Part shown: one piece after another, positions 1 through 4,783 of the stretch | Layout of the letters: each line of letters starts with the position of its first letter | Position numbering within the stretch: position 1 is the stretch's first letter | Virus record (IMG/VR): IMGVR_UViG_3300038318_000066 | Coordinates: 1-28,738 of that record | Origin: a virus | Lineage: Duplodnaviria > Caudoviricetes | Direction: 5' to 3' (one strand) | Length of the DNA stretch: 28,738 nt | Made by a program: the position numbers and the translations under genes | The notes under the pieces: model-generated | Told to the model about the DNA's origin: nothing | The model's input: only the letters and a program-made list of their open reading frames with translations | Database searches by the model: none

Positions 1-1
1 T

Positions 2-133
2 CCTAGACCCCTTGATGAAATACTAGACAGTTTATACAAAGAAAAGGAAATGATGACTGATGAAGAAATGCTAAATCAAGTTAAGGTATTAAATAGATTA
101 TTTGGTGGAACTGTAACAACTTGTAATTCTTAA
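2..133 (+). CDS. 3' end of a probable tail assembly chaperone (partial)
   Basis: Open frame ...PRPLDEILDSLYKEKEMMTDEEMLNQVKVLNRLFGGTVTTCNS*. The 'EEML..VK.LN..FGG' ending and the position upstream of the tape measure gene fit a tail chaperone. Confidence 0.55.
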   Translation, partial: PRPLDEILDSLYKEKEMMTDEEMLNQVKVLNRLFGGTVTTCNS

Positions 134-180
134 GGATATTTTATATTATAAAAGTATAAAATATTATTAGGGGTGATAAT

Positions 181-489
181 ATGGGATTGTATGGTTCGCC
201 AGATACAGGGAATTTATACACAGAAGAAAAACCGATAAAGAAGAAAAGAAAGTTGAAATTCAATGTACAGGCTGTAGTTTTAATAATTCTATATCTGATA
301 ATGCTTTGGGCGGCAGAGGATAAGTATTATATGACAATATCTTATATTGGTGTAATGTCGATTGTTTATTTTTTAGTTTATTTTATTAAGATGATAATTA
401 AATTATTTAGAAAAGAAAGCGTTAATAGTGAGGTAATACGGCTATTAATTGCCACTGGCTTGATTATAATATGTTTGGTTTTAAGTTGA
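181..489 (+). CDS. Small membrane protein (moron-like)
   Basis: 102 aa with three hydrophobic segments; RBS AGGGGTG; possible own promoter (TTGTAA-17-TATTAT, 121-149) and own terminator. Confidence 0.7.
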   Translation: MGLYGSPDTGNLYTEEKPIKKKRKLKFNVQAVVLIILYLIMLWAAEDKYYMTISYIGVMSIVYFLVYFIKMIIKLFRKESVNSEVIRLLIATGLIIICLVLS

Positions 490-504
490 AAATATAAAAA
501 ATAG

Positions 505-535
505 CAAAAGCATCTATAAAATAGGTGCTTTTTTT
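505..535 (+). terminator. Rho-independent terminator
   Basis: AAAAGCATCTAT-aaa-ATAGGTGCTTTT followed by a T tract. Confidence 0.8.
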
Positions 536-545
536 AATGCCTCAA

Positions 546-586
546 AAGGAGGTGGATATATGGCTAAGAGTAAGCCCACTAATTAG
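546..586 (+). pseudogene. Vestigial original 5' end of the tape measure gene (MAKSKPTN*)
   Basis: Strong RBS AAAGGAGGTG, then ATG GCT AAG AGT AA at 560, which parallels MSKSN at 1721. It stops after 8 codons at the cassette edge. Confidence 0.6.
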
Positions 587-746
587 AAGTAGGCTTTTGA
601 TACTCTTTTAAAACCAATTCAATCCCTCTATCAAGTAACTTAGACATAGGTATCATTGTTTGCTCTGACAACTCTTTCAGTTTTAAGAAAAGTTGGGCGT
701 CTACAGCATTTGAAATTGGAGTTCTGTTTTTTAAACCTCTACTCAC
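579..746 (-). CDS. Ribbon-helix-helix DNA-binding protein (55 aa; missing from the ORF track)
   Basis: GTG start with RBS GAGGTG; MSRGLKNRTPISNAVDAQLFLKLKELSEQTMIPMSKLLDRGIELVLKEYQKPTSN shows an RHH pattern. Confidence 0.8.
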   Translation of the reverse strand: MSRGLKNRTPISNAVDAQLFLKLKELSEQTMIPMSKLLDRGIELVLKEYQKPTSN

Positions 747-787
747 ATTTATCACCTCAACTTTATTATAATATATATTGTTAATAC

Positions 788-816
788 TTGCAACTACAAG
801 TAGTTAATGGTATAAT
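788..816 (+). promoter_or_regulatory. SigA-type promoter of the endonuclease gene with a palindromic operator
   Basis: TTGCAA-17-TATAAT; palindrome AACTAC-aa-GTAGTT (792-805) overlaps the -35 box and spacer; lies in the divergent RHH/endonuclease intergenic region. Confidence 0.65.
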
Positions 817-836
817 ATAGTTAAGGAGTTGAAAGT

Positions 837-1679
837 ATGGAATATAGAAAAGAATTGATGGAAAATAAAATGGTGGTATATGCTATCATTAATAAAATAA
901 ACAATAAAAAATATATAGGAATTACAACTAATTCATTTGCTGAAAGATACCCTCATGGAATAAGGGCGCACCATAACCCGCATTTAAAAAAGTCGGTTAA
1001 TAAATACGGGCAAGATAATTTTAAAGTTACATTACTCGAAAAGAATGTAGAAGATATGAAAACCTTATGCAAATTGGAAATGAAATATATAGAAGAATAT
1101 GATACTTGCAATAAAGATAAAGGATATAATAAGTCTTTGGGCGGATATGGTGTACGACAAACGGAGAGAAGTAAAGAACATTGCAAGAACCTTAGTAGAG
1201 CTAAAAAAGGCATTAATCCATTGGCGAGTTATACACCTGAACAAATGGCAACAAGAAATGCAAAAATAAGCAAAGCATTTAAAGGCAAAAATAATCCTAG
1301 ATACGGAATGACAAAAGACAAATTGGAGCCTGAGACATTAGAAAAATTAAGACAAGCCTCTTTAGGTAAAAATAATCCTATGTATGGTAAAAATATTAAA
1401 GATTATATGACAGAAGAAGCATATGATGAATGGAAGAAAAATGTAGCTCGAAAGGGAAAAGAAAACGGTAGAGCGAGAGAAACTGTAATAATTTATAAGA
1501 ACAAAAAATATAAATTTGATTATGCACAAGAGGGGATAAATTACTTTAAGGGCAAAGGCGAATTCATAACAAGAAGTTGGTTTTATCGAGGTGTTAACGA
1601 TAATTATAAACATATATTTCAATTTGTAGGGTATATAGAAGATTATAAAAAATTCACAGAAAATGAAATTGCTATCTAA
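837..1679 (+). CDS. Free-standing GIY-YIG homing endonuclease with NUMOD3-type repeats
   Basis: VVYAIINKINNKKYIGIT...R...E.KYI...GYN catalytic domain; repeats KISKAFKGKNNPRYG and KLRQASLGKNNPMYG; RBS AAGGAG. Confidence 0.9.
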   Translation: MEYRKELMENKMVVYAIINKINNKKYIGITTNSFAERYPHGIRAHHNPHLKKSVNKYGQDNFKVTLLEKNVEDMKTLCKLEMKYIEEYDTCNKDKGYNKSLGGYGVRQTERSKEHCKNLSRAKKGINPLASYTPEQMATRNAKISKAFKGKNNPRYGMTKDKLEPETLEKLRQASLGKNNPMYGKNIKDYMTEEAYDEWKKNVARKGKENGRARETVIIYKNKKYKFDYAQEGINYFKGKGEFITRSWFYRGVNDNYKHIFQFVGYIEDYKKFTENEIAI

Positions 1680-1694
1680 AAGGATAGCTTTTTT
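1671..1694 (+). terminator. Rho-independent terminator after the endonuclease gene
   Basis: GCTATCT-aaaa-GGATAGC-TTTTTT. Confidence 0.7.
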
Positions 1695-1720
1695 ATTTGG
1701 AAAGAGGGTGGTTTTGCACT

Positions 1721-4160
1721 ATGAGTAAATCTAACTTTATAGTGCGCTGAAAACCGTGGTGGAGCGGATTTTAGTGGAATATCAAGAGAAATCAATAAGA
1801 CCCAAAAACGATTAAAAGGTTTCAAAAATAATATAAATGGTACTTTTAAAACAATAGGCAAACTAACAGGATTAGCAATTGGAGCAAAGGCTCTTGTGGA
1901 TTTTGGAAAACAATCAATTCAAGTAGCATCGGACTTGACCGAAGTACAGAACGTAGTAGACGTAACTTTTGGATCTATGGCCAAAGAGGTCAATGAATTT
2001 GCAAGTTCAGCCACTAAAGAATTTGGTTTATCGGAACTATCGGCGAAGAAATTTACATCTACAATGGGAGCAATGCTAAAGAGTTCTGGTATATCTGGAA
2101 CACAGGCTAAAGATATGTCTATAGAGGTAGCAAAGCTTACTGCAGACATGGCCAGCTTTTATAATTTAGATCATGATGAAGCATTTCAAAAAATACAGTC
2201 CGGTATAAGCGGTGAAACGGAGCCTTTAAAACGTCTTGGTATTAATATGAACGTGGCTAACCTGGAAGCTTACAATTTATCGCAGGGAATAACTAAAGCT
2301 TGGAAAGACATGACGCAAGCAGAGCAGGTGCTAACGAGATATAATTACCTGATGCATGTATCTGCTGACGCACAAGGAGATTTTGCAAGAAACACAGGAA
2401 CATGGGCGAATCAAACTAAATTACTAAAAGAGCAATGGCAAGAGTTCATGGGACTGATAGGAAACGCCATTATTGAGGTCTTATTACCATTTGTAAAAGC
2501 TCTTAATAAAGTCTTGGAAATAGTAAATAAAGTATTGCATAAGATAGGCGAATTATATTCTGCAATAACTGGCAAGAATCTTGTAGCTGAATCTAACAGT
2601 GCAATAACAGATACAGCAGATGAAGCTGCAGATTCCGAAGTAGATCTTTCTAAGGGTATAGACAAAGCTTCTAAAGCCGCAAAACGAGCACTAGCACCAT
2701 TTGATGAACTTAATGTACTTCAAGGAGGTTTAGCCAATGGTGACGGACTAGGTGGAAGCGGATTAAATGTTGGTTCTATTGGAGGACTGACAAGTGATAT
2801 ATCCGAAGCAGGAAGCGGAGTAAAAGGACTTAAAAAGGAGTTTGAGGACTTCTTTTTTATATTGGATAATTTTGATAAAAGGGGTTTCTTTAAGGAGCTG
2901 GTAAAGGCTCCCGAAGTTGAACAAGCTACGGTTCCGGTTTTAGATGATAAGGAATTTCAAACTTCAAAGCAGAGATATTTAACACCTGTTCCGGCACCGT
3001 CTTTTTCTCCTGCATTTGCTCCAAGAATGGCATTAGAACAATACTTACAATCTAAAAGTCAGTATCAAGAAACTGTAAAGGCTCCCGAAGTTGAACAAGC
3101 TACGGTTCCGGTTTTAGATGCAGAGACGTATTTTGTACCTTCTTTGGAGGGTGCCAAATTAAGCTATTTGTTAGCAAAAGAATACATCAAAGCCATAACG
3201 GTTCCTATTGTGATTCCGTCTATCGATACAGAAACCTATTTTACTCCTTCTTTGGAAAATACTAAATTGAACTATCAAACGGCGATAGAGTATATAAGGG
3301 GTATAACGGCCCCTACGCTTTTACCCGTGGGGATAGCTTTTGCCACTTTGTTTAGCGGAATTTCAACAAATGCTGCTGAATGGAAGCAAAATTTAATAAT
3401 GCAGTTTGGTGAATTAGTTACAAATATTTCCTTTAACGCAGGACAGTTAAAGGAAGCGGTGGTGCAAAATATAGCAGAGTGGACAACATCAACGCAGGCA
3501 TCTATAAGTAAATGGGGAATAGCTGTAGCGGCGGCAGGTTTAGCAGCGGCGACAAATTTCACTTATAATTTTAATGAAGCGTTAAACACAACCGCAAATA
3601 ACATTTCTGATTGGATTAATACTACGAGCGGAAATATCGCAGAGTGGGGAAGAGGTATGCTATCGACGGCTGCAGAAACAGCAAGAGGCATAGTAAAGAA
3701 TATTTCAGGTGGACTTGAAACAGCGTGGATGAATTTTAAGAACGCTTTATCTGCTATGGGAGAAAAAATTAAAGGCAGTTTCCGACCAAATTACGGCATA
3801 AGTACAGTTGAGACTATAGGCATTACAACTTCGATAGTAGGAAATATGTTTAAAGCTATGTCGGGGAATTTTAAAACTTTAGGAGTGCCCGGTTTAGCCA
3901 CAGGAGCCGTAATCCCGCCAAACAGTGAATTCTTGGCTGTCCTTGGAGACCAGAAATCCGGAACGAACATAGAAACGCCGGAACGATTGCTAAGACAGAT
4001 TGTAAGAGAAGAACTTGGGGACGCAGGGCGATATCAAATGCCTGACACGCAAATAAATATGTATTTAGATGATGATATTATAGGCAGAGCTGTAGTCGCG
4101 TGGATAGATAAACAAGTTGCTCGTTCGGGCGAATTGCCATTTTCATTAGGAGAGCTCTAA
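1721..4160 (+). CDS. Tail tape measure protein; 5' end interrupted by a 10-nt insert with a stop (809 aa if bypassed)
   Basis: Typical TMP motifs (ASDLTEVQNVVDVTFG, DMASFYN, SGISGETEPLKRLGI, LATGAVIPPNSEFLAVLGDQ). RBS + ATG at 1721 gives MSKSNFIVR*, and the long frame reads RGGADFSG... from 1755. The ORF track starts at an internal GTG (1896). Confidence 0.85.
2901..3120 (+). repeat. Perfect 46-bp direct repeat inside the TMP gene
   Basis: GTAAAGGCTCCCGAAGTTGAACAAGCTACGGTTCCGGTTTTAGATG at 2901-2946 and 3075-3120 (VKAPEVEQATVPVLD twice). Confidence 0.95.
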
Positions 4161-4188
4161 GATGATTTTTCCGCATTTTAGAGCTCTC
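4150..4188. terminator. Hairpin between convergent genes
   Basis: GAGAGCTCTAAGATG...CATTTTAGAGCTCTC forms a 15-bp stem with one G-U pair; no clear U tract. Confidence 0.55.
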
Positions 4189-4315
4189 AATACAAATCAT
4201 CTTTGAGTTCGTTGTCATTTTCGGCATGCTTATTTAACTTAGATTTAACGTCGCTTTCAATTTTTCCGAAGTCTACTGTCTTAATGTATTCTTTGAATTC
4301 GGTATAGTCCTTCAT
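4187..4315 (-). CDS. Small antisense moron protein (42 aa; missing from the ORF track)
   Basis: RBS GAAAGGAGG + ATG; MKDYTEFKEYIKTVDFGKIESDVKSKLNKHAENDNELKDDLY. Confidence 0.6.
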   Translation of the reverse strand: MKDYTEFKEYIKTVDFGKIESDVKSKLNKHAENDNELKDDLY

Positions 4316-4417
4316 ATGCAGCCTCCTTTCTCAATTATTTTAGAATCATTACTGCAATATAGAGATTATACCATATGAGACATAGTTTGTAAAAATAAAT
4401 AGAAAACAGGTGATAAC

Positions 4418-4783
4418 ATGGCAGATTTTATAAAATTAAATGGCATATGGGTGCCTACTCCTGCCTCTTTTGATTGGCAGATGTCAGACCTTGATTCATC
4501 AGCTGAGAGGTCTGCATCCGGCTATGTAATCAGGGAGAGAATTAGAAGCGGAGTGAGGAAGACAACATTTAACTGGTCAAGTATGGCAGATATGGAGAAG
4601 TTCTATAATTTTATAAAGATCTTGGAACAACTTCCGCCTGAATTTGAAATGATGTTTCCTGATGCCACCGGCGAAATACTAACAAAGACAATGTATAGGG
4701 CTGATGTAACGGCTAATATGTACAAATATGCAGACAATAAAAGCTATTGGAAAGACCTAAAAACAAGTTTCGTAGAGGTGTAG
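4418..4783 (+). CDS. Distal tail (Dit-like) protein
   Basis: Follows the TMP gene; motif P.P..F.W..SDLDS.AERSASG...RERIR typical of small clostridial phage tail proteins. Confidence 0.7.
   Translation: MADFIKLNGIWVPTPASFDWQMSDLDSSAERSASGYVIRERIRSGVRKTTFNWSSMADMEKFYNFIKILEQLPPEFEMMFPDATGEILTKTMYRADVTANMYKYADNKSYWKDLKTSFVEV

Follow-up and report, generated by a model that had tools for sequence, protein, structure and literature searches.

Natural examples of programmed bypassing are few: gene 60 and its kin, phage Hau3 and the yeast mitochondrial byps. In the MobA/gene 60 system of T4-like phages (genes 39/60, 50-nt bypass), an intron-free homing nuclease moves together with a coding-gap insert in an essential neighbouring gene. 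The system has matched take-off and landing codons, a stop after the take-off codon, stem-loop support and an insert that outlasts the nuclease (10.1101/2022.08.31.505936). Here we describe a comparable locus in the virus record IMGVR_UViG_3300038318_000066, a complete record of 28.7 kb. The whole stretch of 28,738 nucleotides (nt) is called the window. The locus combines a ribbon-helix-helix (RHH) gene, a GIY-YIG endonuclease gene and a broken replacement start of the tape measure protein (TMP) gene. On balance it is probable, from sequence comparison, that these form one mobile cassette whose nuclease would cut the TMP start, whose insert would confer immunity, and whose reading frame would be restored by a ribosomal hop.

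The locus differs from MobA/gene 60 in several respects. The nuclease is of GIY-YIG type, and the target is a tail gene of a Firmicutes-type siphophage rather than a topoisomerase gene. The start is replaced, leaving an upstream piece of 4 codons, whereas in T4-like phages the gene is split into two proteins with added tails. The gap is 1–10 nt, in any frame, against 20–50 nt there, and take-off would occur at codon 9, where the peptide is too short for the gene 60 nascent-peptide signal. The cassette also has its own promoter and an RHH gene. An earlier, sequence-only reading of this DNA called it a T4 mobA/gene 60 analogue. This is apt in that the two appear to work similarly, but the locus does not belong to that system by target gene, gene splitting or cassette structure.

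Three other systems share single features with it. The terminase gene of Streptomyces phage Hau3, likewise an essential gene, has a short insert that breaks the frame and is crossed by bypassing. This 10-nt bypass works in E. coli with the stop in the A site, but it is triggered by a rare UUA codon and read as regulation, and the word 'homing' is absent from the paper's main text (PMC10732093). The free-standing GIY-YIG seg nucleases of T4 are likewise encoded by intergenic genes adjoining a conserved target gene (PMC2988022). They cut at distances of hundreds to thousands of bp, and most lack promoters, whereas here the distance to the inferred site is below 100 bp and a recoded insert is present in the target. 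In the mORFs of fungal mitochondria (Allomyces atp6, Glomus), the nuclease also brings a replacement gene piece and the native piece is left dead (PMC3630166), but there the 3' end is replaced in frame, whereas here it is the 5' end and recoding is needed.

The features of the locus in the window are as follows.

506–535, plus strand: terminator-like hairpin (506–532) upstream of the original TMP start, in the host-phage part (z −3.1; 0/200 shuffles fold equally well)
545–586, plus strand: dead TMP start, with native ribosome site AAAGGAGGTG at 545–554 and ATG at 560, reading ATG GCT AAG AGT; left junction
572–596, no strand: cassette left-end hairpin containing the RHH stop codon; probable two-way terminator
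579–755, minus strand: RHH (Arc-like) gene (Pfam RHH_3, E 3e-16; PHROG 3180); GTG at 746 is the probable start
765–816, no strand: back-to-back sigma-A-type promoters with a common palindromic −35 TTGCAA at 788–793
792–805: candidate operator AACTAC-AA-GTAGTT
837–1679, plus strand: GIY-YIG endonuclease with NUMOD3 motifs, 280 amino acids (aa), identified by Pfam
1671–1696, plus strand: terminator-like hairpin overlapping the nuclease stop, with the terminator at 1671–1688
1704–1710, plus strand: cassette-borne ribosome site GAGGGTG of the live TMP start, of the same type in other cassette alleles
1715–1746, plus strand: start-codon hairpin, 1715–1723 paired with 1738–1746, ending in the predicted take-off codon
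1721–1747, plus strand: replacement TMP codons 1–9, MSKSNFIVR; CGC at 1745–1747 is the predicted take-off codon
1748–1757, plus strand: 10-nt insert TGA AAAC CGT, consisting of stop, spacer and predicted landing codon (1755–1757)
1758–4160, plus strand: TMP gene body, resuming with GGADFS

The sequence-only reading had noted two TMP starts, dead at 560 and live at 1721, with only the RHH and GIY-YIG/NUMOD3 genes between them and the insert about 70 bp from the endonuclease stop. For the window all of this holds, the measured distance from nuclease stop to insert being 68 nt. The dead start reads MAKSKPTN*, ends at 586 and runs into the cassette. The live start (ATG AGT AAA TCT AAC TTT ATA GTG CGC TGA AAA C CGT GGT GGA GCG GAT) reads MSKSNFIVR*, with the stop at codon 10. 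Past the insert the TMP continues in the +1 frame for 797 codons beyond a conserved Asp, and ends as in the cassette-less relative L001. Two related loci, L038 and L049, add an open reading frame (ORF) of 72 aa (L049:2283-2501, L038:310-528), which lies between promoter and nuclease and overlaps the nuclease start; L053 retains its tail only.

An assembly error as the origin of the insert was ruled out, because contigs of run X1 (two records) span it with 0 differences and two relatives have different 10-nt inserts at the same codon. X1 is possibly the window's own source, and its agreement therefore counts only against an assembly slip. A group I or II intron carrying the nuclease was also rejected: an Rfam intron search of positions 1–4500 gave no match, and the antisense RHH gene and terminators lie inside the interval. 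The nuclease has its own stop and terminator, and the description of the system as intron-free stands.

TMP starts were gathered via TMP scans, nuclease scans and DNA patterns, giving 153 loci which with the window reduce to 46 distinct alleles. Two of these (L004, intact; L012, insert) were dropped because their upstream DNA is too short. Among the remaining 44, twelve (including the window) have insert and nuclease, two have the insert without a full nuclease, none is intact with the nuclease and 30 are intact without it (Fisher p 4e-9, uncorrected for kinship). Whether insert and nuclease co-occur was a question raised by the sequence-only reading. In the alleles compared the link is strict, with 12/12 nuclease carriers having the insert against 0/30 intact alleles having the nuclease. 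That 0/12 nuclease carriers are intact would fit protection by the insert. Cassette-less relatives are joined without a break, again as that reading had envisaged, and read MAKSNFIVRGGADF uninterrupted; of the 120 TMP homologues listed, 85 start with an unbroken NFIVRGG-type motif. Four close nuclease loci (L038, L039, L041, L042) end before the TMP.

The insert alleles that lack a full nuclease (L005, L007/L008, L171) retain its last codons. In L005 the nuclease 3' end remains behind an IS200/IscB-like insertion (L005:2084-3870), whose ORFs inside the nuclease gene we take to be IS200 transposase-like and IscB-like; the +6 insert remains as well. In L171, found after the 44-allele count, the RHH end is fused to the nuclease end. 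None of the 31 intact alleles carries any of the cassette-end words tested. The cassette-deleted TMP of L171 is broken again near codon 155 (L171:2690-3655), probably by an intron with a second, distant GIY-YIG ORF (285 aa, 28% identity).

The cassette is almost certainly a mobile unit. The window and L001 are 96% identical over 1–245 and again from 1788, and the DNA between differs; at the right junction identity resumes at 1788–1801. Five pairs of invaded and uninvaded TMP genes (window/L001, L032/L083, L037/L074, L056/L060, L053/L061) are 87–99% identical over 300 nt, and in all five the last differences lie 0–35 nt beyond the Asp codon. Inserts of +1, +5 and +6 occur on one and the same TMP body, and invaded rows are scattered across the TMP tree, in which some long branches are unsure. 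As far as alignments can tell, the cassette has clearly moved between TMP lineages. There is no surrounding intron or intein, and the distribution is patchy with co-conversion of flanks, as in a free-standing homing element.

At the left junction, the dead starts align with the native starts of intact relatives up to ATG GCN AAR (window/L027, L049/L001, L039/L074, L038/L060). The window dead start aligns with the live TMP start of the cassette-less L027, L004 and L003, and the live starts of L027 and L004 are preceded by the same hairpin arrangement. The dead start is not a fixed part of the cassette: it is recognisable in 4/11 aligned left ends and has eroded in the seven others. If the junctions come from break repair, the break would have lain in the interval they enclose, at the insert-bearing codons.

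The inserts occur in all three frames within the codons R-G-G-A, with lengths of +1, +4, +5, +6, +7, +8 and +10 nt. The +10 inserts read CGC TGA AAAC CGT (window), CGG TGA ATAA CGT (L032) and CGC TGA CTTT CGC (L033); +8 reads CGC TGA CA CGC (run X5 contig, from a loose end of 30 letters); +7, CGG TGA T CGG (L171); +6, CGG TGA CGT (L005, L006, L049); +5, CGC TG AGT (L036); and +4, CGA A CGY (L034, L040, L056). The +1 insert, GCC T GAC, lies three codons further on (L007/8, L009, L012, L037, L053). The constant feature is an Arg codon given twice, on either side of a variable middle that mostly begins with TGA: a CGN codon is repeated in 7/8 insert types of +4 or longer, and both copies are the same codon in L033, L171 and the X5 contig. 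The window rarely uses CGC (4/5217 codons).

To judge from these codons, the repeated Arg is a take-off and landing pattern, and re-pairing at the second Arg would give the exact wild-type protein; L036 and the +1 class would need a first-position mismatch. The matched codons of gene 60 thus recur here (CGC-TGA...CGT in the window), with L036 (unmatched) and the +4 alleles (no stop) as exceptions. Because the inserts fall in all three frames, mostly with Arg duplicated around TGA, ribosome hopping fits better than one frameshift. A single +1 frameshift as a general rule was ruled out, since the inserts span three frames. Reading TGA as a sense codon was likewise rejected, as it leaves the out-of-frame alleles unexplained; TGA ends 1/13 window genes counted.

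It is very likely that full-length TMP is made by recoding. Beyond the insert the new frame retains GG[AG]DFS, no shared downstream in-frame start with a ribosome site was found, and 12/15 insert alleles have a TMP body that stays open up to a stop at 527–887 codons or to the contig end. In the leader KSNFIV of the 12 nuclease alleles, variable positions number 6 at third, 1 at second and 0 at first codon positions, and pairwise changes are 106 silent against 8 replacement (9 distinct leaders).

Upstream of the insert, the bases between the ribosome site and the AUG, together with the AUG itself, pair with the codons F-I-V-R. The mean leader folding energy is −9.6 kcal/mol in the 15 insert alleles against −4.2 in the 31 intact ones. 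In a fixed register the 10 gap-free insert alleles have 91% of cells paired with 9 two-sided changes, and at the Val wobble pair C-G, G-C, U-A and A-U are all seen among insert alleles. None of 500 shuffles reached this level (0/500) and slid registers gave 26–60%; the shuffle counts are not probabilities, because the register was derived from the same sequences and kin share changes. The 16/31 intact alleles picked for equal length are 49% paired, with no excess over shuffles. L171, which lies outside the hairpin alignment, has the same GCAC/GTGC pairing as the window. By analogy with the proposal for the gene 60 5' stem-loop, the stem, which ends in the take-off codon, would form only as the ribosome departs the start; it may slow initiation too. 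It differs from the gene 60 take-off stem-loop, whose 5' arm holds the take-off codon and which is accompanied by a mini Shine-Dalgarno ahead of the landing site: in the hop alleles the stem lies 5' of the take-off codon and ends in it. The covarying hairpin, the at least seven insert lengths and the movement between TMP lineages all go beyond the sequence-only reading.

The added base in +1 alleles makes GCCTGA complementary to a downstream TCAGGC/TCGGGC (L009:3997-4018), giving a hairpin over the stop. This stem is predicted in 4/5 +1 alleles only, being broken in L037, and may aid the shift or reflect a template-switching origin. An internal Shine-Dalgarno before GCC-UGA scores −8.4 to −12.9 kcal/mol against an intact mean of −8.1, a modest difference.

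The nuclease has the features of a GIY-YIG homing endonuclease, namely catalytic-domain residues and C-terminal NUMOD3. Pfam PF01541 is above cut-off, and NUMOD3 (PF07460) gives E 1.3e-7 over two stretches. The alignment with I-TevI is weak by sequence (E 0.045), and Y15, Y26, G28, R37, H46, E81 and N98 align with I-TevI residues which we take to be catalytic; all 7 are kept in 50/53 homologues. Rough counts give a pN/pS of 0.12–0.21 for the catalytic domain. The family comprises about 65 clusters at 48–83% identity, falling below 40% beyond. The base of the nuclease tree (11 rows) is weakly resolved, and insert types cannot be ordered on it; L032 (+10) and L036 (+5) have near-identical nucleases.

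The RHH protein is a likely repressor of the shared promoter. Its relatives have the N-terminus MSRGL/MNRGL. TTGCAA and the rightward TATAAT are invariant in 9/9 aligned loci. In 12 loci the promoter spacer tracks the RHH beta-strand: RTPISNA occurs with AACTACAAGTAGTT in 4/4, R[VI]RIGNA with AACTTATAGC in 7/7, and 1 is intermediate. This match suggests an operator, although linkage alone could also produce it.

On the basis of these observations, we propose that the nuclease would recognise conserved TMP codons of about 4–15 in the intact start of rival phages, because ATG GCN AAR marks the left junction, while the right one coincides with GAY TTY or closely follows it. The cassette returns a start, and so would rebuild its own target; the added bases would alter the spacing instead, as the amino acids are too conserved for escape by silent change. 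That the nuclease cuts the TMP start and the insert confers immunity seems to us a good deal better supported than its negation. The ribosome would pause when Arg-9 occupies the P site and UGA the A site; the hairpin would close behind it, and the peptidyl-tRNA would pair anew with CGT, the second Arg codon, 10 nt further along, to give FIVR-GGADF. In +1 alleles the same push would produce a +1 shift at GCC-UGA. A low hopping efficiency would be enough because a virion needs few TMP copies; in 80alpha there are three per virion, and the TMP N-termini bind the tail completion protein (PMC11661146). The RHH protein would probably repress the shared promoter.

Several points weigh against this account. 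One of the DNA patterns used is biased towards intact and +1 alleles, and many of the loci derive from related samples. In L036 (+5) the landing codon (AGT) does not match, no stop follows take-off in the +4 alleles, and the CGG/CGT and CGA/CGY pairs have different third bases and, in genome G001, different tRNAs. L009/L012 pair in a shifted hairpin register (2/6 in the fixed one), and the hairpin could be a mere initiation brake because it buries the AUG. The silent leader variation could predate the inserts. Later breaks occur in 3/15 insert alleles: L012 has a stop after 16 codons, L056 has a 1-nt indel around codon 585, and the break in L040 coincides with an assembly gap. In L053 and L056 the RHH gene is missing beside the nuclease. 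The RNA runs X6 and X7 give no coverage of the insert. As a side observation, positions 1–110 of L012, directly before its TMP ribosome site, resemble a group II intron 3' end.

The best surviving alternative, which we nevertheless consider unlikely, accepts that insert and hairpin are recoded but makes them a dimmer of TMP output riding with the cassette, for example against read-through from the promoter of the cassette, with the nuclease cutting elsewhere or being blocked by the silent changes that the replacement codons carry. The buried AUG, the promoter-like site that the cassette brings and the retention of the insert after nuclease loss in three alleles all suit this idea. However, a terminator stands between nuclease and TMP, the seven insert lengths all lie between the two junctions and within four codons, and T4 relatives likewise retain the bypass after MobA loss (10.1101/2022.08.31.505936).

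Somewhat less probable still is that translation stops early and a shortened TMP arises by re-initiation at a downstream or overlapping start. A GTG does overlap the stop in several +1 alleles, 8/120 TMP homologues are called from this GTG as MPDFS/MEPDFS, and the window has a GTG at 1896 with a weak AAGG, but the overlapping GTG is absent in L037 and in all +4 to +10 alleles. Later starts vary in place and lack ribosome sites. The conservation of GG[AG]DF and KSNFIVR on either side of the insert, with silent changes, also speaks against re-initiation, as does the structural role of the TMP N-terminal strand in 80alpha (PMC11661146).

We give little credence to the idea that the inserts are error-prone repair scars after self-cutting, in dead TMP genes of decaying prophages. 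The later breaks in L012 and L056 and the +4 insert, which looks like a short duplication, would fit, but most insert alleles keep an open TMP body, the same insert is found on different TMP bodies, and dead genes would not keep a covarying hairpin. Equally remote is removal of the extra bases ahead of translation, through RNA splicing, slippage in transcription or DNA slippage between repeated CG: although nuclease-bearing introns occur in TMP genes (PMC10055350; L171), the window has no Rfam intron match over the range searched, the inserts are 1–10 nt long, the stop comes before the A run, and the joined form is in no X1 contig, though contigs drop rare variants.

In the window, the tail genes including TMP (PHROG 1535) are followed by holin, M23 lysin, helix-turn-helix repressors, DNA polymerase A, VapE, SNF2 and HNH. 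A small membrane-protein moron (181–489) lies between the tail chaperone and TMP. Its MGLYGSPD start is conserved and its body is exchanged among relatives (34% to L001, 57% to L003), and its first codons contain the left crossover between window and L001. A minus-strand ORF of 42 aa without family match (4190–4315) lies between TMP and the tail gene that follows. TMP relatives occur in named genomes of Tepidimicrobium, Sedimentibacter, Paratissierella and Anaerosalibacter, and some contigs exceed 200 kb; the family therefore likely includes prophages of anaerobic Firmicutes. The annotated phages searched contain no TMP relative above 60%. A profile search of 401 genomes of the phylum of G001 found G001 alone, and a pattern search of 401 genomes of its class gave matches in 36, with reversed controls similar and 0/29 new loci passing the TMP-start filter. 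As unrelated DNA, 7/13 matches of one further search and 5/10 of another were discarded.

A literature search, with most subscription journals outside its reach, found no description of a nuclease-linked bypass in a tape measure start, and according to a 2016 review natural in-frame stop-hops were not known (PMC5009743). We rate as an even chance that the locus represents a second, independent family of homing elements buying self-immunity by ribosome hopping. This would be a minimal form, in which a start-codon hairpin drives hops of any length from 1 to 10 nt at codon 9–12 of a tail gene. Among them would be a natural in-frame stop-hop, with CGG-UGA-CGU decoded as a single Arg. With its own promoter and RHH switch, the prophage may also turn the nuclease against incoming related phages.

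The locus also accounts for mis-called TMP starts: 8/120 homologues begin at the +1 frame and at least 11 at later starts, some of which may be caused by truncated contigs. It provides a natural allelic series, with one site, seven gap lengths, all frames and a compensating hairpin in less than 45 nt. Whether pairing of the mRNA behind the ribosome gives the proposed push can be tested directly here, without a nascent-peptide signal. If the proposal is true, immunity by recoded insert would be a repeated strategy of intron-free homing nucleases.

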